Source of the DNA: Candidatus Shapirobacteria bacterium
GTDB taxonomy: Bacteria; Patescibacteriota; Microgenomatia; UBA12405
DNA length: 45,507 bases
NCBI GenBank assembly: GCA_028704885.1
Contig: JAQWEN010000001.1
Coordinates: 175,172-220,678, forward strand
Direction of reading: 5' to 3'
Made by a program: the position numbers and the translations under genes. The notes below the pieces were generated by a model, which searched no databases, was not told the origin of the DNA, and was given only the letters and a program-made list of their open reading frames with translations. Below are positions 515-28,083 of this stretch, piece by piece. Positions within the stretch are counted from its first letter, which is position 1. Every line of letters starts with the position of its first letter.

Positions 515-2911
515 ATGGAAAATTTCAAGGAAATAGAAAATAAATGGAAGAAATTTTGGGAAGATAATGCCGGATTGTATCAAGCCAAGAATGATAGTGA
601 TAAAAAAAAGAAATATATTCTAGTGGAATTTCCTTATCCAAGTGGTAGTGGTTTACATGTAGGTCATGCTTTTAGTTTTACTGGTGGAGATGTGTATGCT
701 CGGTTTAAAAGAATGCAGGGAGAAAATGTGATGTTTCCGATGGGATGGGATGCTTTTGGATTGCCAACTGAAAACTATGCGATTAAGATGAAAAAAAAAC
801 CACAGCAAGTAACTAAGGAAAACACTGATATGTTTAGAAAACAAATGAAGGATTTGGCTTTTTCTTTTGATTGGAGTCGGGAAGTAAACACAACTGACCC
901 AAGTTACTATAAATGGACTCAATGGATTTTTATTCAATTATTTAATAAGGGTCTGGCTTATAAAAAAGAAATGCCAATTAATTGGTGTCCATCCTGCAAA
1001 ATTGGTTTGGCTAATGAAGAAGTGGTAGATGGAAAATGTGAGCGCTGCGGAGCGGAAGTGAGTCGAAGAAATATATCTCAATGGGTGGTTAAAATAACAG
1101 ACTATGCTGATAAATTAATTGAAGGTTTAAAGGAAACTAATTTTATAGATAAAGTTAAACAAGCACAGATTAATTGGATTGGAAAATCAGAAGGGGCGAA
1201 GATTAAATTTAAGATCTCAGATGTCAGTTCTCAGATTTCAGATCTGGAAGTGTTTACGACTAGACCAGATACATTGCCGGGAGTGACTTTTATGGTAGTA
1301 GCTCCAGAGCATCAATTAGTTGATCAGATTATCAGTTCGTCAGTTTTTCAGAAAGAAGAAATAGAAAATTATGTCAAAAATGCGAGAAAAAAGAGTGAGT
1401 TAGAAAGAACGGAACTTTCCAAAGATAAAACTGGAGTGTTCTCAGGATTATATGCCATCAATCCGGTTAACAATAAAGAAATCCCAATTTGGATAAGTGA
1501 TTTTGTCTTAGCCAGTTATGGAACTGGAGCAATTATGGCAGTGCCAGCTCATGATGAAAGAGACCATGCTTTTGCTAAAAAATTTGGGTTAACAATTGTG
1601 CCAGTGCTCAATAAGGAAGGTTGGGATTTTGAAAAAAAAGCTTTTACAGAAGTAGAAAAAGGGGAAGAATTTAATAAAATGTTAAATTGGGTTGAAGAAA
1701 AAGGTATTGGAGAGAGAACATCTTCGTATCATTTAAGAGATTGGATATTTTCAAGACAACATTATTGGGGTGAACCAATTCCAATGGTTAATTGTCCTAA
1801 ATGTGGCATGATTCCAGTCAAAGAAAGTGATTTACCAATTGTATTACCAGAAGTGGAGGCTTATGAACCAACTGATGACGGTCAAAGTCCTTTGTCGCAG
1901 ATGACTGATTGGGTTAACACGACTTGTCCAAAATGCGGCGGAGAAGCTAAGAGAGAAACTGATACGATGCCAAATTGGGCAGGTAGTGATTGGTACTTTT
2001 TGAGATATATTGATCCACATAATGATACAGTATTAGCTAGTCAAGAGTTAATGAAATACTGGAGTCCGGTTGACGTTTATATTGGTGGAGACGAGCATAA
2101 TGTGCTGCATTTGTTATATTCTCGATTTATTTATAAGTTTTTGTGGGATTTAGGTGTAGTACCAAAGGAATATCCAGAACCATATATTAAAAGATTGTCA
2201 CATGGAGTAATTTTGGGTCCTGATAATCAAAGAATGAGTAAATCGAAGGGTAATGTGATTGTGCCTGAGACAGTGGCGGATATTTATGGGGTTGATGTGG
2301 TGAGAATGTATTTAATGTTTATGGGGCCTTTTGATTCAACCATGGCTTGGAACGAAAAAACATTAATGGGAGTTAAAAGATATTTAGATAGGTTGGAAAA
2401 GTTTATAAATTCTCAGAAAGAGAATAATCTTGCTAGCAGTAAAGAAGTTAAAATGATAATAAATAAGCTAATTAATGGAGTTACCGAAGATTTAGAAGCT
2501 TTTAGATATAACACGGCTATTGCTAAAATGATGGAAGCGTTAAATAGCCTATCAGTTGGGCAGTCTATTAGTTTGTCAGATATTAAGACCTTAATAAAAT
2601 TACTGGCGCCATTTGCTCCATATATGGCTGAGGAATTATATAGTTTCTTTGAAAAGACATCGGTTCATGCGGCTTTATGGCCAGTGGCTGATCCAAAATT
2701 CCTAATAGGGGATGAAACTACTGTAATGGTATCGATTAATGGCAAGGTGAGAGATAAATTAATAATTAAGAATGAAGAATTAATAAATAAAGAAGAAATT
2801 TTAAGAAAAGCTAAAGGATTAGATAATATTAAAAAATGGATAGGTACGGGTGAGATAGTTAAAGAGGTATATGTACCAGGTAAAATGGTTAATTTGGTGA
2901 TAAAGTTATAG
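515..2911 (+). CDS. leuS: Leucine--tRNA ligase
   Basis: HIGH-like HVGH, KMSKS-like RMSKS, PMGWDAFGLPTEN and TTRPDT motifs, Zn-knuckle cysteines. Confidence 0.98.
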   Translation: MENFKEIENKWKKFWEDNAGLYQAKNDSDKKKKYILVEFPYPSGSGLHVGHAFSFTGGDVYARFKRMQGENVMFPMGWDAFGLPTENYAIKMKKKPQQVTKENTDMFRKQMKDLAFSFDWSREVNTTDPSYYKWTQWIFIQLFNKGLAYKKEMPINWCPSCKIGLANEEVVDGKCERCGAEVSRRNISQWVVKITDYADKLIEGLKETNFIDKVKQAQINWIGKSEGAKIKFKISDVSSQISDLEVFTTRPDTLPGVTFMVVAPEHQLVDQIISSSVFQKEEIENYVKNARKKSELERTELSKDKTGVFSGLYAINPVNNKEIPIWISDFVLASYGTGAIMAVPAHDERDHAFAKKFGLTIVPVLNKEGWDFEKKAFTEVEKGEEFNKMLNWVEEKGIGERTSSYHLRDWIFSRQHYWGEPIPMVNCPKCGMIPVKESDLPIVLPEVEAYEPTDDGQSPLSQMTDWVNTTCPKCGGEAKRETDTMPNWAGSDWYFLRYIDPHNDTVLASQELMKYWSPVDVYIGGDEHNVLHLLYSRFIYKFLWDLGVVPKEYPEPYIKRLSHGVILGPDNQRMSKSKGNVIVPETVADIYGVDVVRMYLMFMGPFDSTMAWNEKTLMGVKRYLDRLEKFINSQKENNLASSKEVKMIINKLINGVTEDLEAFRYNTAIAKMMEALNSLSVGQSISLSDIKTLIKLLAPFAPYMAEELYSFFEKTSVHAALWPVADPKFLIGDETTVMVSINGKVRDKLIIKNEELINKEEILRKAKGLDNIKKWIGTGEIVKEVYVPGKMVNLVIKL
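1212..1246 (+). repeat. Five heptamer units inside leuS
   Basis: AGATCTC AGATGTC AGTTCTC AGATTTC AGATCTG. The same core recurs at 8505 and 40714. Confidence 0.85.
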
Positions 2912-3020
2912 TTAAAGATATAGTTTAGTAAGTTTACTCAATATAATAGAGCAAAATATATCAAGCAGAAAGTAAAATTGACTGCTAATCAATATAAAAT
3001 TGGTTAAAAGATGGGAATAT

Positions 3021-4250
3021 ATGAATAAAATGAAAAGCTTTAAATTAAATAATGGAATCAGAGGGATAATCGTTCCAATGCCGGGTTTAAAGTCGGTAAC
3101 TATCGAGGTATTTTTAAAAATTGGTTCTAAATATGAAAATAAGGGTGAATTTGGTTTAAGTCACTTTTTGGAACACATGGCTTTCAAAGGAACAGAGAAA
3201 AGACCAACAGCTACAGATATAAATAGAGAAATTGACAGCAAAGGAGCCGGTTACAATGCTGGAACTGGGCACGAAATGACTTCTTATTATATAACTACGG
3301 TTAAAGAAAATGCTCCTTGGGCAATTGAATTAATTTCAGATATACTTTTCAATTCATTTTATGATGAAAAAGAGACGATAAAAGAGAGAGGAGTAATTAT
3401 GGAAGAAATCAAAATGTATCAAGATAATCCAATGATGGGATTAAGCGGTGAATTTACTAAGTTTTTATATGGGGGTTCTAAAATTGGCTGTTGGAATATA
3501 GCTGGCGAAGTGTCGGATATTAAAAATGTTGACCGAAAAACGATTGTTGATTATAGAAATAAATATATTAATCCAAAAGAAATAGTAGTGGTGGCTTGTG
3601 GAGACGTGGATAATGGGTTGGAAAAGGTAATTAGTGATAATTTTGGTGGTTTTTCTAAAGATGAATTAGGTTTACCTGAGGTGAAATTGGTTCTAAATAA
3701 AGAAAAGAACATGGTAATTAAAAAGGAATTGGAGCAAGGCCATTTTTGTATGGGTTTACCAGCTATAGGTTGGTCTGATAAACGAAAATATGCTTTAAAA
3801 TTATTAGATATAGCCTTGGATGGAAATAGTTCTTCTAGACTCTATACTAAAATTAGAGAGGAAAAAGCTTTGGCTTACTATGTGTCACCGGTGGGAGAGA
3901 TGTTTAAAGAGGGTGGTTATTGGGCAATTCAGTCGGGAGTGAATCTAGATAAGATAGAAGAGGCAATGGAAGTAGTAAGTAAAGAAATTGAAATCATAGC
4001 TAATTCCATTAAAGAAGATGAAATAAAGAGGGCTAAGGATTATCTTTTAGGTAAGATGAAGTTAGCAATGGACAAAACAGGCTTTGTTTCAGGATATGTG
4101 GGTCAGAAATTACTTTTGGAGAATAGTGAGGAGACATTAGAAGAGGAATTAAAAAAATATAGTGAAACTTCCTTAGAGGAAGTAAAGGATTTGGCCAAAG
4201 AGATATTTAAAAAGGAAGAAATTAGGACTTTAGTGTGTCATAACAGGTAA
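3021..4250 (+). CDS. M16 (pitrilysin/insulinase) family zinc peptidase
   Basis: HFLEHMAFKGT inverted zinc motif HxxEH, ERGVIMEEIKMY, SSRLYTKIREEKALAY. ATG at 3021 or 3030 is more likely than the TTG at 3000. Confidence 0.92.
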   Translation: MNKMKSFKLNNGIRGIIVPMPGLKSVTIEVFLKIGSKYENKGEFGLSHFLEHMAFKGTEKRPTATDINREIDSKGAGYNAGTGHEMTSYYITTVKENAPWAIELISDILFNSFYDEKETIKERGVIMEEIKMYQDNPMMGLSGEFTKFLYGGSKIGCWNIAGEVSDIKNVDRKTIVDYRNKYINPKEIVVVACGDVDNGLEKVISDNFGGFSKDELGLPEVKLVLNKEKNMVIKKELEQGHFCMGLPAIGWSDKRKYALKLLDIALDGNSSSRLYTKIREEKALAYYVSPVGEMFKEGGYWAIQSGVNLDKIEEAMEVVSKEIEIIANSIKEDEIKRAKDYLLGKMKLAMDKTGFVSGYVGQKLLLENSEETLEEELKKYSETSLEEVKDLAKEIFKKEEIRTLVCHNR

Positions 4251-5440: not shown

Positions 5441-6640
5441 TTACCTAATTGAGATAGAATAGAGATTCTCCTGGGCATTGCTGTAAGGGGCAATTAAAGT
5501 AACGATTTTACTGCCATCAAGCCAAGGATAAACTACATTTTTATTGAAATTACCAGCAAAAAGGGTAAGTTTATTAGTGTTGTCATATTCGACAGTTTGG
5601 ATTTTTTGGTCTTCAGTATAGATAAGATTGTAAGAATTAACCAACCAACTAAGATTTTGTAAGCTGGAATCGCCAATCCAGAAATTGGTATCGTCTTTAA
5701 TATCGTAAACATAATAATTATCTTTTTTAATGTCTCGGGATTGAATTTGGGTTGATTGAGCTGGAGGAGGAGAGATTAAATCCTTTTGAAGATTGGTGTC
5801 AATCTTGGCTAAATAAAGAAATTTGGTGTCATCATCACTAAAAAGAATATTCTTGGCTGAAGCAGTAGAAACGATAGCTTGGATTTCTTTAGGAATAAGA
5901 TTAAGTTTGGCTTTAATAATTTCCTCTTCTTGAATTTGCCATTCTTCTTTAATTAGGGTTAATTTTGGAGTAACGTCATATAAATTTTTATAATCAGTGG
6001 TGGCATCTAGATTAATAAGATAATTAGTATTATTACTGATATTTTTAGCTAAAATTTGTCGAGAATTAGGAGAAAAAGTAAATGTAAATTTAGACCAATC
6101 CAAGTTGGAGAGATTCGAACTTAATTGTCGGGCGATGTTTTTGGCTAAAAAATTGACATTATTGCTTAATTCAAGCAAATAAAGACCATTATCTTTAGTG
6201 GCTGAGGCTGAAGCAACAGAAAAAACAACTAGACTACCATCAGGACTGCCAGCTGGGTTAAGGGCGCCAGTTAAAGTTACAGGCTTAAGATCGGGAGCGG
6301 AACGGAATAATTGAGTATCGCTTTGATAAACTACCTCTTTTTTTATTTGAATATTTTTTTGCCAAGGTAAATAGCCATCTTTGACAATTTTAATAGTGTA
6401 TTCATCGGGGACAAGATTAATAGTGTCATCAGTAGCAGTAATTAGACGATCGTTAATATAGACAGAAGCGGCTTTGGGACGAGAAGTAGCAGAAATAATA
6501 CCAGTGGCTAAGAAACTTAATTTACCTTTGGTGGAGATTTTGTAACCTCTGGCAAAAAAAGAAATGGCAATAGTACCACCAATGATTAAAAGAACGACCA
6601 AAAAGATAATAGATAGGCTTTTTTTATCTGGAGTTGACAT
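5441..6640 (-). CDS. PEGA domain-containing membrane-anchored protein
   Basis: N-terminal TM helix; ATSRPKAASVYIND...YTIKIVKDGYLPWQKNIQI fits a PEGA domain; C-terminal propeller-like segments. Confidence 0.75.
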   Translation of the reverse strand: MSTPDKKSLSIIFLVVLLIIGGTIAISFFARGYKISTKGKLSFLATGIISATSRPKAASVYINDRLITATDDTINLVPDEYTIKIVKDGYLPWQKNIQIKKEVVYQSDTQLFRSAPDLKPVTLTGALNPAGSPDGSLVVFSVASASATKDNGLYLLELSNNVNFLAKNIARQLSSNLSNLDWSKFTFTFSPNSRQILAKNISNNTNYLINLDATTDYKNLYDVTPKLTLIKEEWQIQEEEIIKAKLNLIPKEIQAIVSTASAKNILFSDDDTKFLYLAKIDTNLQKDLISPPPAQSTQIQSRDIKKDNYYVYDIKDDTNFWIGDSSLQNLSWLVNSYNLIYTEDQKIQTVEYDNTNKLTLFAGNFNKNVVYPWLDGSKIVTLIAPYSNAQENLYSISIR

Positions 6641-19689: not shown

Positions 19690-19714
19690 TAAAAGTCAAG
19701 ATTGTAGGATAGAA
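19690..19714 (-). repeat. 25-bp direct repeat, left of cassette D
   Basis: Minus strand TTCTATCCTACAATCTTGACTTTTA; 24/25 identical to 20359-20383. Confidence 0.85.
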
Positions 19715-20339: not shown

Positions 20340-20383
20340 ATTATAACATTATAGGGTATAAAAGTCAAGATTATAGGATAGAA
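20340..20383 (-). promoter_or_regulatory. Sigma70 promoter of cassette D with two boxes; contains the right 25-bp repeat
   Basis: TTGACT(20368-20363)-17 bp-TATAAT(20345-20340); TATCCTATA at 20372-20380 and TACCCTATA at 20350-20358. Confidence 0.85.
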
Positions 20384-22659: not shown

Positions 22660-23235
22660 ATGAAAATATATTTTATAGCATCTTCTCGATTAGTTGGAGC
22701 TAGTCCAAAACTTTATTCAAAAATGTATGCCTATTTGTCAACTCAAGGCAAAATGGTAAGTGATAAAGTGATGAAGTGGATAAAAACGGGAATTAAAGAT
22801 ATAAGTGGAGCACCGCTTAAATTTACAAAAGAAAATTATATTCAATCGTTAGATGCCGTTAAAAAAGCTGATATTGTGGTAATGGAAACTTCTGGTCATA
22901 GTATGTCGATGGGATATTTAATTGGTAAAGCCTTAGAAATGAATAAGCCAGTGATTGCTTTGCATGATATAGAACATATTCCAGCCTTTATTCAGGGTAT
23001 TAATGATCCAAAATTGATAATTTCAGAATATAAGGAAGGGGATGTGGAAGAAATTATGGAAAAAGCTTTAAAAAAGGCAAATAGTTTAATTGATGTTAGA
23101 TTTAATTTCTTTGTAAGTTCGAAAATATTAAATTATTTAGACTGGGTGTCACAGAAAAAAATGTTGCCAAGATCAGTATTTTTAAGAGACTTGATTGAAA
23201 AAGAGATAAAAAAGGATAAAGAATTTAAAATGTAA
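22660..23235 (+). CDS. Nucleoside 2-deoxyribosyltransferase-like domain fused to a C-terminal ribbon-helix-helix domain
   Basis: KIYFIAS...ADIVVMETSGHSMSMGYLIGKALEMNKPVIAL resembles the NDT fold; RFNFFVSSKILNYLDWVSQKKMLPRSVFLRDLIEKEI fits RHH/CopG. Confidence 0.7.
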   Translation: MKIYFIASSRLVGASPKLYSKMYAYLSTQGKMVSDKVMKWIKTGIKDISGAPLKFTKENYIQSLDAVKKADIVVMETSGHSMSMGYLIGKALEMNKPVIALHDIEHIPAFIQGINDPKLIISEYKEGDVEEIMEKALKKANSLIDVRFNFFVSSKILNYLDWVSQKKMLPRSVFLRDLIEKEIKKDKEFKM

Positions 23236-23237
23236 GA

Positions 23238-24314
23238 ATGAACATTTTTGATAGATGGAAAAAAGTTTACGAGTCGTTGAATTTGATCGAAATTAATGAA
23301 AGAAATTTGTTGAATAATTATGATTTTTTTGATAATTTGGGAAAAGAGCAAATATGGCCAGTGTTGAAATCAAATGCTTATGGACATGGAATTAGACAAA
23401 TTGCAGAAATTTTATTAAAAAGAGATTTTGAATATTTTGTGGTGGATGGTTATCAAGAGGTTTTGGAAATTAGAAAAATAACAAAAAGACCAGTTTTAAT
23501 GATTGGAACTATTTTGCCATCTAATTTTTCGAAAATAAAATGGAAAAATTTGGCAATAATGATTCAAGATAAAAGAACATTAATAGCTTTGGGAAAATTA
23601 AATAAACATATCAAAGTGCATCTAAAAGTGAATACGGGAATGAATAGACAGGGGATTGAGATCGTAGATCTTAGATCGTTGATTGGGGAAATAAAAAAAT
23701 ATCCAAAACTAGAACTAGAAGGAGTTTTTTCGCATTTGGCGGGAGTGAATGATAGTGAGCAAATAAAAAGATTTGAAGAAGTAATCAAAATAGTCGAAAA
23801 TAATGGAATAGAAATAAAATTTTTTCATTTGGCGGCGACGTCGGGGGTAGGAAAAATAAAAAATAAAAAAATTAATGCAGTAAGATTGGGAATTGGATTA
23901 TATGGAATAGGAAAAGGATTAAAACCGGTATTAAAACTAAAAAGTAAAATAACTAAAGTGAGGGAAATTGAAAAAGGGAAAAAGGTTAGTTATGGAGGGA
24001 CTTTTGTAGCGACAAAAAAGACAGTTGTTGGAGTGATTCCAGTGGGTTATTTTGAAGGACTAGATCGAAGATTGAGTAATAAAGGATTTGTTAAATACAA
24101 AAATAAATTTTATCCAATAGTTGGCCGGGTTTGTATGAATATGGCAATAGTTAATTTTGGGAAAGTTAGACCAAAATTATACGATGAAGTGGAGGTAATC
24201 AGTAATAATTCAAAAGACAAAAATTCAATTGAAAAAATGGCAGAAATTTGCGAAACGATACCTTATGATCTATTGGTGGAAATTAATTCATCGATTAGAA
24301 GAACGATAGTTTGA
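23238..24314 (+). CDS. alr: Alanine racemase
   Basis: VLKSNAYGHG (PLP lysine), HLKVNTGMNRQG, FSHLA, VRLGIGLYG, VSYGGTF, GRVCMN, TIPYDLL. Confidence 0.95.
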   Translation: MNIFDRWKKVYESLNLIEINERNLLNNYDFFDNLGKEQIWPVLKSNAYGHGIRQIAEILLKRDFEYFVVDGYQEVLEIRKITKRPVLMIGTILPSNFSKIKWKNLAIMIQDKRTLIALGKLNKHIKVHLKVNTGMNRQGIEIVDLRSLIGEIKKYPKLELEGVFSHLAGVNDSEQIKRFEEVIKIVENNGIEIKFFHLAATSGVGKIKNKKINAVRLGIGLYGIGKGLKPVLKLKSKITKVREIEKGKKVSYGGTFVATKKTVVGVIPVGYFEGLDRRLSNKGFVKYKNKFYPIVGRVCMNMAIVNFGKVRPKLYDEVEVISNNSKDKNSIEKMAEICETIPYDLLVEINSSIRRTIV

Positions 24315-24325
24315 TTTGGTTTTCA
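24301..24325 (+). repeat. Perfect 25-bp direct repeat, left copy (alr 3' end)
   Basis: GAACGATAGTTTGATTTGGTTTTCA, identical to 26894-26918. Confidence 0.95.
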
Positions 24326-24346
24326 TTTTTACTGTTATACTTTTTT

Positions 24347-26878
24347 ATGCCAGAGAAAAGTGGTGGAGAATTTTTAAATATCAAATATCCTGATTTACAA
24401 AAATCAGAACAAGTTCAAAAATCAGTTGAACAAAAGAAAATAAAAGAAGGAGTTAAAACACCTAATAACCCAAAAGATAGAAATGAAGTCTTATTGGAAA
24501 GATTTGAAAGAATCTTTGAAAATCCAGATGAAGAAACTAGAAAAAGAAATATCAATTTATTTACCGAAAAATTTTTGTATCCGGAAGTATTAATTGATAC
24601 AAATAATGTCCCTGAAAACTACTTTGAGTTACAAAAGAAGATTGCCAGAGAAAGAGGTCATGGAGATGTTGAATTTGATGATCGAACAAAAAAAGAAACA
24701 GGAAAAACTCTTTATGATGATCAGAAAAAATCGCTTGATGTTTGGATAAATTATTTAAGTGACAAAAATACTGATTATCCAACTTGGTTTAAATATTACA
24801 CTCTAAGAAGTGTCCTTAAAATGGGTAATTATGATAAAGAAAAACATGAGTTTGGAAAAAGAACTAAAAATACTACCAATATTTTCCCAGATCTAAACAG
24901 AGAAGCATTGTCTTATTCTTACGACACTTTATCTAAACATTATCTTAAAGGTGAAAAACACGATAATGATGAATTAAATAGAATTTTAGAATCAGCTAGA
25001 TTTGATAAGATTTACGCTTTTGCAATTGATAAGGCCACTCCAGTTTCTAAGGAAAACAAAGAAAAAACAGAAGGAGAATGGACTAAATACAATCAAGGTG
25101 ATGATGCCACTCCACTTTACGAATCACTTCAGGGTCATGGAACTAATTGGTGTACAGCAGGAGAGGAAACTGCCAGAAGACAACTTAAAGATGGTGATTT
25201 TTATGTTTATTACACTAAAGATGAAAACAATAGAAATACTATCCCAAGAATTGCCATTAGAATGGAAAATGGCCAAGTAGCTGAAGTTAGAGGTGTGGCT
25301 GATAAACATCAAAACCTAGAAGGTAGGATGACTGAGATTGCCAGAGAGAAGTATTCACAACTACCAGGTGGAGAAAAGTTTGATAAAAAAGATCAGGATA
25401 TGAAATTATTAACTTTGATTGATAAAAAAACTAAAGATAATCAGGATTTAACTAAAGAAGAACTTAAATTTCTCTATGAAATAGACAATAAAATTGAAGG
25501 GTTTGGATATCAAAAAGATCCAAGAATTGAAGAAATTAAAAATCAAAGAAATACAATATTAGATCTAAATTTTATTTTTGAAGGAGTAGAAGAATATTCT
25601 GGCAATCTTGATTTAAGGAATCTTCAATCAGCTGAAGGATTAGTCTTACCGGAAGAGGTTGGCGGTGATCTTCGTCTAGATCATCTTAAATCAGCCGAAG
25701 GGTTAGTTTTACCTAAAAAAATCGGAATATCTTTATTTTTATTAGAATTGAGTTCTAATGAAGGATTGGTTTTACCGAAAGAGATTAAAGGCAATCTTTT
25801 TTTAAACAATCTTATTTCAACTGAAGGATTGGCTCTACCGGAAGAAATTGGATGTGATTTTATATTAGGTAATCTTCAGTCAGCCGAAGGGTTAGTGTTC
25901 CCTAGAGAAATTGGAGGTAGTATTGATTTATCTAGTCTTAAATCAGCTGAGGGGTTAGTTTTACCAGAAAAAATTGGTGGTGATCTTCAATTACGCCGTC
26001 TTCAATCAGCCGAAGGATTGGTTTTACCTAAAGAAATTGGTGGTGATCTTCAATTAGGTAGTCTCCGTTCAGCCGAAGGGTTAGTGTTACCTAAAGAAGT
26101 TGGAGGTAGTCTTGATTTACATGGTCTTCAATCAGCCGAAGGGTTAGTTTTACCAGAAAAAATTAATGGTAATTTTTATCTACACGATCTCGAATCAGCT
26201 GAAGGATTAGTTTTACCTAAAGAAATTGGTGGTGATTTTTATTTAGGTAATCTTCGTTCAGCTGAAGGATTAGTGTTTCCTAAAGAAGTTGGAGGTAGTC
26301 TTGATTTAAATGGTCTTAAATCAGCTGAAGGATTAGTTTTACCAGAAAAAATTAATGGTAATTTTTATCTACACAATCTCGAATCAGCCGAAGGATTGGT
26401 TTTACCTAAAGAAATTGGTGGTGATCTTCAATTAGCTCGCCTTAAATCAGTAGAGGGACTGATGTTATCTGGTAAGATTGGAAATAATCTTCACTTAAAT
26501 AGTCTTCAATCAGCCGAAGGATTAGTTTTACCAGAAGAGATTAAAGGTAATCTTAATTTAGATAGTTTAGAATTAGCCGAAGGGTTAGTGTTCCCTAAAG
26601 AAATTGGTGGTGATCTTCGCTTAAATAGTCTTCAATCAGCTGAGGGATTAGTTTTGTCTAAAGAGATTGGAAAAAGTCTTTACTTAAATGGTCTTAAATC
26701 AGCTGAAGGATTAGTTTTACCAGAAAAAATTGGAGATAGTCTCACTGTAAATAATCTTAAATCTTTTGAAGGAATTAAAATATCAAAGAAATCGGTTTAT
26801 TTTGTTTGGTCATCCAATTTAGATCAGACTGAAAAGAATTATTTGGAGAAAAAATATCCGAGATTAATCTTTAATTAA
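24347..26878 (+). CDS. Large protein: unknown N-terminal domain plus about 18-19 22-aa leucine-rich-like repeats
   Basis: Likely start MPEKSGG at 24347, just after TGTTATACT (extended -10); repeat consensus L(Q/K)SAEGLVLP(E/K)(E/K)IGGxLxLxx. Confidence 0.85.
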   Translation: MPEKSGGEFLNIKYPDLQKSEQVQKSVEQKKIKEGVKTPNNPKDRNEVLLERFERIFENPDEETRKRNINLFTEKFLYPEVLIDTNNVPENYFELQKKIARERGHGDVEFDDRTKKETGKTLYDDQKKSLDVWINYLSDKNTDYPTWFKYYTLRSVLKMGNYDKEKHEFGKRTKNTTNIFPDLNREALSYSYDTLSKHYLKGEKHDNDELNRILESARFDKIYAFAIDKATPVSKENKEKTEGEWTKYNQGDDATPLYESLQGHGTNWCTAGEETARRQLKDGDFYVYYTKDENNRNTIPRIAIRMENGQVAEVRGVADKHQNLEGRMTEIAREKYSQLPGGEKFDKKDQDMKLLTLIDKKTKDNQDLTKEELKFLYEIDNKIEGFGYQKDPRIEEIKNQRNTILDLNFIFEGVEEYSGNLDLRNLQSAEGLVLPEEVGGDLRLDHLKSAEGLVLPKKIGISLFLLELSSNEGLVLPKEIKGNLFLNNLISTEGLALPEEIGCDFILGNLQSAEGLVFPREIGGSIDLSSLKSAEGLVLPEKIGGDLQLRRLQSAEGLVLPKEIGGDLQLGSLRSAEGLVLPKEVGGSLDLHGLQSAEGLVLPEKINGNFYLHDLESAEGLVLPKEIGGDFYLGNLRSAEGLVFPKEVGGSLDLNGLKSAEGLVLPEKINGNFYLHNLESAEGLVLPKEIGGDLQLARLKSVEGLMLSGKIGNNLHLNSLQSAEGLVLPEEIKGNLNLDSLELAEGLVFPKEIGGDLRLNSLQSAEGLVLSKEIGKSLYLNGLKSAEGLVLPEKIGDSLTVNNLKSFEGIKISKKSVYFVWSSNLDQTEKNYLEKKYPRLIFN
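25601..26790 (+). repeat. 66-bp coding tandem repeat array
   Basis: Recurrent TCAGC(T/C)GAAGG(A/G)TT(A/G)GTTTTACC at 66-bp period, with a near-identical three-unit duplication. Confidence 0.92.
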
Positions 26879-28083
26879 GCTAAATTAGCTTTTGAACGAT
26901 AGTTTGATTTGGTTTTCAGCCAAAATTTGGATTGGCGGCAGATTCTATAAACATCAGAAGGATTTTTGAGAATTGATTTGACTAATTCCTCTAAGAAAAT
27001 AGTATTTTGAGAACCTTTGACCAAAATGGTTTCGCAGCCAGTAATTGTTTCTTTTAAAAATTCGGCGGCAGTCCACCAATTGACAAATTTTTGAGTTTTA
27101 TCACCAAAATATTTAGAGGTTTCTGGACCGACAGAAATAATTAAATCAGCTGATTTTAAGGCTTGATCATAAATTTTTCGATGTTCTTCTGGGGTGGCAT
27201 CACCAAGTTCGCGCATGTCGCCTAAAACAGCGATTTTTTTACTTTTAAAACTAGATAAAAACTTGAGTAATTCAGAACAAGCAATGGGAGAAGAGTTGTA
27301 AGAACTATCGATAATAGTGGTATTTTTAATGCCTTCTAAAATTGAAGAGCGGGACGGGGGAAGAGAAAAATTATCTTGAATATTTTTAACAGCTTCGTTG
27401 TAGTTAATATTAAAAATTTGAGCCAAGCTGAGGGCGGCGCCGAAACTGACTTGGTAAATATCAGGAAGATAAAAATTATCAAATCTAATTTTGGTGGGAG
27501 TAAGATTAATAATATTTTTATTTTGAGTGTATTTTTTGACTAGTTTGTCTTGATTATTAATAATGGCGATTTTGGCTTGGTTAACTAATTTGGCTTTTTC
27601 CCCAGCAATTTGGTCGAGAGAGTTAAATTTGTCGAGATGAACTGGACTAACATTTAAAAAAATAGCAATATTAGGTTTAACAACAGATAAAAGATAATCC
27701 ATATTTTTTGGCCAAGAAGCAGAGTCAATGCCCATTTCTAGAATTAAAATATCGTAGGATTGCCAATTAATGAGGTATTTAAGAGGAGAAAGAATAAGCA
27801 TTTTAAACCAGGCAAAAAAATTATAGTCATTAAGTTTAAGACCCAAAATACTTAAAGGTAATCCAGATTCAGAATTGCAATTGTTATTAGTTTTAATTTT
27901 GTATTTTTTTGGGAAAACAGATTGACAGGCAATTAAAGCCGAACTTTTACCTGCCGAACCAGTAATACCAATGATGTCTAATTGCTTACCTTTAATTTTT
28001 TGAAGAAACTTGACTTTAGAAAGTTGGAGTTTAGCAAAAAAACGAAGGTAATAGAGAATAAAAAGCGATATTTTTTGTTTCAC
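26875..28083 (-). CDS. murF: Mur ligase, MurF-like
   Basis: IGITGSAGKSS, LILEMG, H-containing NVSPVH, IIDSSYNSSP, AVLGDMRELG, ILVKGSQ. Confidence 0.82.
   Translation of the reverse strand: MKQKISLFILYYLRFFAKLQLSKVKFLQKIKGKQLDIIGITGSAGKSSALIACQSVFPKKYKIKTNNNCNSESGLPLSILGLKLNDYNFFAWFKMLILSPLKYLINWQSYDILILEMGIDSASWPKNMDYLLSVVKPNIAIFLNVSPVHLDKFNSLDQIAGEKAKLVNQAKIAIINNQDKLVKKYTQNKNIINLTPTKIRFDNFYLPDIYQVSFGAALSLAQIFNINYNEAVKNIQDNFSLPPSRSSILEGIKNTTIIDSSYNSSPIACSELLKFLSSFKSKKIAVLGDMRELGDATPEEHRKIYDQALKSADLIISVGPETSKYFGDKTQKFVNWWTAAEFLKETITGCETILVKGSQNTIFLEELVKSILKNPSDVYRICRQSKFWLKTKSNYRSKANLA
26894..26918 (+). repeat. Perfect 25-bp direct repeat, right copy (murF 3' end)
   Basis: GAACGATAGTTTGATTTGGTTTTCA, identical to 24301-24325. 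Confidence 0.95.

Follow-up and report, generated by a model that had tools for sequence, protein, structure and literature searches.

Integrative elements such as e14 and phage 21, which reside in icd, carry a spare 3’ end of their target gene. Campbell-type insertion-duplication, as seen with suicide plasmids, proceeds by a single homologous crossover of a non-replicating circle, and insertion sequences of the IS1202 group produce very long target duplications of ~24-29 bp. Recombinase-less islets bounded by copies of a gene 3’ end are also known already: according to Guedon et al. 2017 (PMC5704250), who deal with streptococcal integrative and conjugative or mobilizable elements, cis-mobilizable elements (CIMEs) have lost the integration and transfer genes and kept attL and attR. 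The minimal mobile elements described for Neisseria (Saunders and Snyder 2002; summarised in PMC3787668) are not defined by flanking duplications. Here we describe a locus of Candidatus Shapirobacteria in which a gene for an 843-aa protein lies between alr and murF and is bracketed by direct repeats of 25 bp. The analysed stretch of 45,507 nt (the window) corresponds to positions 175,172 to 220,678 of contig JAQWEN010000001.1 in assembly GCA_028704885.1. The genome under study (G000) is a metagenome-assembled genome (MAG) of 779 kb in three contigs, with the locus on a contig of 735 kb; all genomes used for comparison are MAGs as well.

The repeat GAACGATAGTTTGATTTGGTTTTCA is present at 24301-24325 and 26894-26918 of the window in two perfectly identical copies with a spacing of 2,593 bp. 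When up to three mismatches were allowed, the window contained two matches, while none were expected from 100 shuffles, and the whole 779-kb genome also contained two, both at alr/murF. The perfect repeat pair noticed in the original prediction was thus confirmed, with two copies in the window and in the genome. Between the copies there are 2,568 bp with one real gene, the product of which has 843 aa. The features of the locus are the following:

22660..23235, plus strand: up191, a conserved gene encoding 191 aa, without a Pfam hit
23238..24314, plus strand: alr, alanine racemase (TIGR00492, E=1.5e-78), the sole alr of G000
24301..24325, plus strand: left copy of the 25-bp repeat, consisting of the last 14 nt of alr including its TGA stop and of 11 further nt
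24326..24346, plus strand: 21-nt leader of the cassette with the extended -10-like motif TGTTATACT at 24333-24341, six nt before the ATG
24347..26878, plus strand: cargo gene encoding the 843-aa protein, with a conserved domain in residues 1-420 and a leucine-rich repeat (LRR)-fold solenoid of 21-aa repeats in the remainder
26894..26918, plus strand: right copy of the 25-bp repeat, the minus strand of which encodes the MurF residues L-K-T-K-S-N-Y-R-S
26875..28083, minus strand: murF, UDP-MurNAc-tripeptide--D-Ala-D-Ala ligase (Mur_ligase_M/C, TIGR01143), with the last five codons and the stop derived from the insert

The cassette is placed in the tail-to-tail overlap of alr and murF, and the overlap segment is now found on both sides of it. 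Owing to this duplication, alr still has its original end, and murF is retained except for its last few codons. The 11 nt of the left copy behind the alr stop are antisense coding sequence of murF in the empty site described below and are non-coding in G000. When the flanks were joined in silico, alr was unchanged (...RRTIV*) and MurF had 400 aa ending in ...KTKSNYRSSNR*, as compared to the present 402 aa ending in ...KTKSNYRSKANLA*. Excision of the 2593 bp therefore spares alr and gives murF the expected YRSSNR* end, and the view that the insert supplies a new murF stop is borne out by the position of the last five codons and the stop of murF within the insert. The right copy extends leftwards in a degenerate form (ATTAG-CTTTT-GAACG... 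versus ATTAG-AA-GAACG...), and therefore the original duplication probably comprised at least 31 nt (TTAGAAGAACGATAGTTTGATTTGGTTTTCA).

The unit is a self-contained one-gene insert, composed of a putative -10-type promoter, the open reading frame (ORF) and 15 nt behind it, so that its non-coding share amounts to 21 nt before the ATG and 15 nt behind the stop. In agreement with the first description of the locus, it carries no recombinase: there is one ORF only, in which Pfam, NCBIfam and PADLOC detected no recombinase domain. The cargo protein also lacks a transposase domain, and an inverted-repeat scan showed nothing at the termini; the two ends of the insert, TTTTTACTG... and ...TTAGCTTTT, are not inverted copies of each other. 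Thus, the unit resembles an IS1202-type element in the length of the duplication, but differs from it by the lack of a transposase and of terminal inverted repeats and by a duplication length that varies between 21 and 63 nt across sites. Integron cassettes are promoter-less ORFs with an attC site behind them, arrayed next to intI/attI. The unit deviates from them by an own -10-type motif, by a hairpin of only 15 nt behind the stop, and by the lack of an array and of an IntI-type gene nearby, while a search with attC models was not part of this comparison. As with e14 and phage 21, the target gene is whole after insertion, and its end is found once more on the distal side of the insert. However, e14 and phage 21 encode their own integrase. 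The segment duplicated in G000 provides for two genes in opposite orientation, one of which, murF, nevertheless obtains a new tail. A CIME is a close comparison, since the perfect 25-bp repeat covers the ends of alr and murF, and integration and transfer genes are absent. In contrast to CIMEs, which target one gene end, the G000 insert occupies the overlap of two convergent essential genes, and it is a single ORF with almost no non-coding DNA. In addition, a genome-wide search for two recombinase families, made on MAGs, yielded no related integrase-bearing element and no cognate integrase in the genome or the genus.

The single-copy alr/murF junction that had been predicted for relatives was found in two of them. 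In G009, which belongs to the same genus, up191 and alr are followed by the convergent murF, with alr and murF overlapping by 21 nt. The junction sequence ...AGAAGAACGATAGTTTGATTTGGTTTTTATCC... contains a single copy of the 25-mer (24/25 identical), and MurF ends in ...KTKSNYRSSN*. An independent metagenome contig of the Joint Genome Institute (JGI), L068, has the same junction as G009. Since the empty junction exists in both, the arrangement in G000 is a true insertion. Scans of public contigs with a 21-mer of the repeat returned only empty sites of the G009 type and one chance hit, and neither a circle junction nor a second copy of the G000 type.

The occupied site is also not restricted to G000. 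The closest homologue of the cargo protein (P0002, 81% identical over the N-terminal domain) is encoded on the 53-kb ENA contig L102, which has the gene order up191-alr-LRR-murF as in G000, and a second assembly, L103, has junctions identical to those of L102. For a genome assembled from a metagenome it could be suspected that the gene was misjoined into alr/murF through the short repeat. The presence of the same order in two independent assemblies of a relative, the uniqueness of the 25-nt repeat in the genome, the complete murF frame terminating inside the insert and the 735-kb length of the contig make such an artefact so improbable that it can be practically neglected.

At the nucleotide level, G000 and L102 are 81.5% identical in the N-terminal part of the cargo gene, 80.8% in alr and 83.7% in the 3’ part of murF, and insert and flanks are thus equally diverged between the two (~19%). 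The insertion is therefore old or recurrent, since it is common to a genome that is ~19% diverged. The suggestion that it was recent could not be upheld, because the same gene is present at the same site in L102, the flanks have diverged to the same extent and the repeat has decayed there. The right repeat copy differs at only 1/25 positions from G009 as well as from L102 and is clearly held by selection on murF, so that the perfect identity in G000 is no proof of recency.

The comparison of the junctions suggests how they have changed. In L102 the 21-nt leader directly follows the alr stop, and the 11 nt TTTGGTTTTCA are missing. At its right junction the stop of the cargo gene overlaps the old murF stop, followed by TTAGAAGAACGATAGTTTGATTTGG..., and MurF retains the ancestral tail ...YRSSN*. 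The repeat copies of L102 match at 17/21 positions. The left edge of the cassette, 21 nt before the ATG, is common to G000 and L102. The right junction of G000 reads TAA-GCTAAA-TTAG-CTTTT-GAACG... as compared to TAA-TTAG-AA-GAACG... in L102, and it is of the L102 type with small indels, which give rise to the hairpin and the new murF tail:

26877..26891, no strand assigned: hairpin AAGCTAAATTAGCTT, overlapping the cargo stop and absent from the L102 allele

The new MurF tail K-A-N-L-A-stop is read from the minus strand of this spacer. The simplest history would be one old duplication of at least 31 nt, which was trimmed differently in the lineages of G000 and L102.

Another history has to be considered, in which the gain in G000 was recent and independent, while that in L102 was separate, older and 7-11 nt away, the overlap being a re-used landing site. 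It would account for the different positions of the duplication (-14 to +11 relative to the alr stop in G000 versus approximately -21 to 0 in L102) and for a repeat that is perfect in G000 and matches at 17/21 positions in L102. It also fits the relationships of the flanks: in alr and murF the empty G009 is closer to L102 (89%, with mosaic tracts of 96-100%) than either is to G000, and presence and absence of the insert do not follow the tree. This closeness implies that G009 lost the insert, that there were two gains, or that alleles were exchanged by recombination. However, the conflict is explained equally well if the cassette was lost from G009, either because its flanking repeats recombined or because an empty allele was brought in by transformation. 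Moreover, the insert is as diverged as the flanks (81.5% versus 80.8-83.7%), the left cassette edge is the same in both genomes, and the right junction of G000 can be derived from the L102 type via small indels. We therefore regard two independent gains as rather unlikely.

A similar architecture exists at two other genes. In a genome-wide scan of G000 for direct repeats, one other unique pair bracketing genes was detected. This perfect 38-bp repeat at G000:C1:625817 and 627189 (span 625817-627226; positions 2318-3727 of locus L083) copies the end of a MiaB-like gene around a cassette of 1.37 kb, which contains a gene for an XRE-type regulator and two small ORFs. G018 and G042 have this site without the cassette. 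In G006, a homologous XRE-type cassette is flanked by two unrelated genes and has neither a repeat nor a miaB sequence.

The second case concerns the cargo family itself, for which it had been proposed to look for direct repeats around homologous LRR genes elsewhere. Directly behind uppS, in two metagenome contigs, we found a gene of this family bracketed by a 63-nt copy of the end of the upstream gene, stop included (56/63 and 58/63 identity; alignment scores of 91-101 versus a shuffle maximum of 27):

L104, 3905-3967 and 5908-5970: 63-nt copies of the uppS end
L117, ~961-1024 and 2698-2760: 63-nt copies of the uppS end

The last 13 nt of these copies correspond to two natural uppS alleles (...RLGK* and ...RMGK*), the order of which is swapped between L104 and L117. 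The cassette and the upstream side are 88-96% identical in the two contigs, as compared to 76% for the downstream flank. As judged from these sequences, the uppS repeats were evidently involved in recombination with other alleles. We also considered the swapped tails as proof of an imported copy and dropped this argument, since identical copies followed by allele recombination would fit too and the models are not separated by it. Beside the swapped allele ends, a 16-nt indel is present in the leader.

For 15 other homologues of the cargo gene in the genus and the class, no flanking repeat was detected. They are located at tRNA 3’ ends, between miaB and yceG (G010, L118), behind def and in other settings; a weak match behind miaB of G010 turned out to be the end of yceG and not a miaB copy. 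The repeat length differs by site, with 25 nt at alr/murF (17/21 matching positions in L102), 38 nt at miaB and 63 nt at uppS, and even for the cargo family alone the duplications at different loci and in different genomes (25 nt, ~21 nt, 63 nt) have no fixed length. A motif common to the 25-bp and the 38-bp repeats, both of which start 2 nt before ACGAT, was too weak and was not used. In summary, a cassette just behind the stop of a gene with a 21-63-nt copy of the end of this gene on the far side is a recurring architecture in the genus. Particular to the alr/murF locus is the position in the overlap of two convergent essential cell-wall genes with a duplicated segment that serves both. Further particular features are the minimal one-ORF unit, the lack of a cognate integrase among those found in the genus, and the occurrence of the same cargo family at two genes.

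Two other kinds of repeats were observed. In the window, a 24/25-identical direct repeat, TAAAAGTCAAGATT(G/A)TAGGATAGAA, at 19690-19714 and 20359-20383 brackets a minus-strand ORF of 140 aa. Further, GC-rich hairpin repeats (for example ACCCTCCCTTGAAAAGGGAGGG and GACATCTCCCCTTAACAAAGGGAGAA) are scattered directly behind stop codons in G000:C1 at ~63-117 kb and 625-635 kb, in L104 at 5975-6090 and in L078.

How could such cassettes move? The absence of inverted ends and of a fixed duplication length argues against a classical transposon. The repeat sequences at the three sites are mutually unrelated, and therefore capture of the Xer/dif type, as in integrative mobile elements exploiting Xer recombination (IMEX), was rejected. 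An integrase acting in trans is a different matter. The insert could have remained, in a decayed CIME-like form, from a larger integrative element or phage, or it could be a satellite of one. The attachment site of that element would have copied the alr/murF junction, and the repeats would then be attL and attR. Integrative elements are classically recognised by direct repeats of such a size at a gene 3’ end, the gene end being supplied or preserved by the element. The same site is occupied in two diverged genomes, and other homologues adjoin tRNA 3’ ends, which are classical integration sites.

The recombinase content of the genus does not fit well to this explanation. G000 has one PF00589 gene and no PF00239 gene, i.e. 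no serine recombinase, and the 38 congeners have essentially only two syntenic core tyrosine recombinases of the Xer type (~315 aa and ~292 aa), none of which adjoins murF, uppS or miaB. Beyond these two, which nearly every congener possesses, no candidate for an integrase acting in trans emerged from the search, which covered two recombinase families. The paucity of recombinases weakens this explanation, with the reservation that MAGs may miss the encoding element. Besides, neither a motif nor a length is common to the repeats of the three sites, and the edges of the cassette closely follow a single ORF (21 nt upstream of the start, 0-15 nt downstream of the stop), which would require precise decay to have happened repeatedly. 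Taken together, we consider an integrase supplied in trans to be quite unlikely. As to the core recombinases, only the first one (~315 aa) is seen in G000; the second may be located in the ~8% of the genome that is missing or may have been lost.

In another scenario, the target was duplicated de novo, either at a break with long staggered ends that were filled in or by a template switch at a replication fork, which copied the gene from another place and returned 25-60 nt behind the point of departure. The cassette would then enter without prior homology and later spread by ordinary recombination of the flanks. No other model accounts for how a cassette first reached a new site. The existence of cassette relatives without alr/murF or miaB sequences indicates that the repeats are derived from the target. 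The copies are perfect in G000 and at miaB, and a variable length (21-63 nt) fits a non-enzymatic stagger. However, there are no terminal inverted repeats, and we know of no prokaryotic process that makes duplications of 25-63 nt without a transposase. The uppS copies with their different natural alleles would need additional recombination steps. Finally, at 3/4 junctions the repeat ends at the stop codon or one nt before it, which resembles a carried gene end more than a random stagger. Duplication of the target de novo is the main alternative to the explanation given next, although its probability is low.

The explanation that we tentatively favour, at a level somewhat short of probable, is that the cassette was moved by the homologous recombination machinery of the host acting on the short repeats after uptake of DNA, without a dedicated enzyme. 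DNA taken up by competence would contain the cassette together with a short copy of the end of the target, and would recombine with the resident gene end at this short repeat. This could happen in two forms. In the first, a circularised piece would be inserted by a single crossover of the Campbell type; in the second, there would be a double crossover, with its long arm provided by the upstream gene and its other arm by the short repeat. Either form would leave the homologous segment on both sides of the cassette. The same repeats would later permit loss, re-gain and shuffling of alleles, so that the structure would be reversible and could propagate itself between strains. The geometry is that of Campbell-type insertion-duplication, in which the insert lies between direct copies of a shared segment; a dedicated enzyme is not required, and the repeats make the event reversible. 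The difference is that the shared segment has only 25-63 nt here, and to our knowledge no natural source of such a circle has been described.

Several observations support transfer by host recombination. The repeats differ in sequence and in length, with no common recognition motif evident. The cassette is without a recombinase, there are few recombinases in the genus, recombination is active and a gene for the competence channel ComEC is present. For active recombination, the alr genes of L102 and G009 (L064) provide direct evidence at the sequence level: tracts with 96-100% identity in a background of ~75-89% form a mosaic that points to recent homologous exchange between these lineages. The uppS copies with their alleles in swapped order, and the drop in identity at the downstream flank there, are further signs of it. 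The existence of the empty site, the occupied site in L102 and L103 with equally diverged insert and flanks, and the right junction of G000, which differs from the L102 type by small indels, are in line with this explanation as well.

Four points weigh against the role of host recombination. First, the initial linkage of the alr/murF segment to the cassette is left unexplained and needs an illegitimate event, because homologous cassettes exist at other loci without the alr/murF segment, and the XRE-type cassette in G006 exists without the miaB segment. Second, 25-31 nt are at the lower limit for RecA-dependent exchange. Third, the MAGs may lack a mobile element that encodes the cognate integrase. 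Fourth, the perfect copies in G000, including the 11 non-coding nt, are unexpected for an old duplication unless they have been homogenised or re-created, and the G000 repeat may conceivably have undergone either.

The wider neighbourhood of the insert is variable as well. In most of 24 congeners up191 abuts murF tail to tail, and this contact marks the ancestral junction. At this place, G013 and G017 carry a HAD-like gene and G009 carries alr; in G008, alr is reduced to a remnant with an internal deletion, and G000 and L102 have alr together with the LRR gene. The up191/murF junction is thus a hotspot. The alr of G000 is only ~36% identical to the alr located upstream of murF in other congeners and is therefore itself an earlier arrival at the junction; it looks as if an essential gene had been displaced by a distant homologue that took up a new position. 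Most congeners have this distinct alr upstream of murF and nothing between up191 and murF (loci L006, L010, L011, L019, L021, L022). In G016 (locus L007, G016:C28), a run of N is located exactly at the junction, just after up191. Around the earlier arrivals (alr in G009 and G000, the HAD-like gene in G013 and G017), no direct repeats above chance were found. A 12-nt match, ACGATAGTTTGA, near the start and the end of alr in G009 was dropped, as it is inside conserved coding sequence. The junction resembles minimal mobile elements in the variable content of whole genes among close relatives. Minimal mobile elements are exchanged by homologous recombination in the flanking genes, and an exchange of this kind may have occurred here, given the alr mosaic of L102 and G009 and the presence of ComEC. 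The difference is that the G000 insert is bracketed by a duplicated target segment.

The cargo gene seems to bring its own expression signal. The sequence TTGCTATACTTTTTT-ATG is conserved in close homologues at other loci (leaders of L102, L104, L107 and L060), and no Shine-Dalgarno sequence is present. The extended -10 motif was recognized by eye and by this conservation; a consensus promoter scan gave no canonical -35/-10 before the gene. This suggests that the genes of the family give rise to leaderless transcripts from an extended -10 promoter. An ORF of 855 aa starting at the TTG 24311 inside the repeat was rejected as an artefact, since all homologues begin at the ATG corresponding to 24347 (M-x-E-x-x-G-G-x-F...). 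The solenoid is encoded by a tandem array:

25604..26763, plus strand: 18.4 copies of a 63-nt unit

Between 25619 and 26731, this array has a higher-order period of 189 nt, i.e. three units, with 78% identity, and several perfect internal duplicates of 48-57 nt. It has therefore expanded recently by unequal recombination. The number of repeats differs among the homologues, which have 502-843 aa.

The protein had been described as LRR-like. This holds at the level of the predicted fold, where a solenoid was obtained, and not at the level of sequence, where no Pfam LRR family matched even at E<=10. Pfam, NCBIfam and PADLOC as a whole contained no match for the cargo protein, and a profile search of the PDB gave nothing. 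In the AlphaFold2 model the solenoid has a predicted local distance difference test (pLDDT) score of 93.6. Its top fold matches in the PDB are Leptospira LRR proteins, YopM and TLR8, with Foldseek probabilities of up to 1.0 and low template modelling (TM) scores of 0.2-0.5, which are probably due to differing curvature. The predicted LRR-type solenoid of 21-residue repeats (pLDDT 94) is shared with the Leptospira proteins LIC11098 and LIC10831 and with the YopM/IpaH class. In contrast to these, the cargo protein has no Pfam LRR match and no signal peptide, and is fused to a domain of 420 aa. This domain (residues 1-420) is conserved in ~3,400 Patescibacteria proteins with the invariant residues W268-C269, D284, R301 and E313. 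It is modelled as a mixed alpha/beta domain (pLDDT 86) and has no relative in the PDB by sequence or fold, since the fold search returned nothing below E=1. The family, with ~3,400 members found only in Patescibacteria so far, was present in 12/401 sampled genomes of the class, and the gene is therefore an accessory one. With its conserved domain fused to a rapidly varying LRR solenoid, the protein is a reasonable candidate for host or phage recognition.

Based on these observations, it is tempting to go one step further, to an idea that we consider improbable in its general form. Shapirobacteria, and perhaps the Candidate Phyla Radiation (CPR) generally, could exchange accessory genes by an enzyme-free system of addressed cassettes. 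Each cassette would consist of a gene or a small set of genes with an own promoter and, as a copy of 20-60 nt, the 3’ end of a housekeeping gene. This copy would serve as a portable homology arm for RecA-dependent insertion-duplication behind the resident gene after competence uptake, and the same repeats would allow excision, loss and shuffling of alleles. Junctions of convergent genes and gene ends (alr/murF, uppS, miaB/yceG, tRNA ends) would then be docks that need no integrase.

The locus is of interest for several reasons. The genomes of CPR bacteria are tiny and almost devoid of recognisable mobile-element machinery, and yet the accessory genes differ sharply among close relatives. The alr/murF junction provides a base-precise pair of states before and after the gain of one gene, and shows that an insertion inside the overlap of two essential genes was tolerated through duplication of the overlap. 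Together with uppS and miaB, it points to a repeatable route of gene gain without a recombinase encoded by the cassette. If transformation and short-homology recombination are indeed responsible, this would account for gene flux across much of the bacterial tree and would offer a simple design for genetic tools in these organisms.

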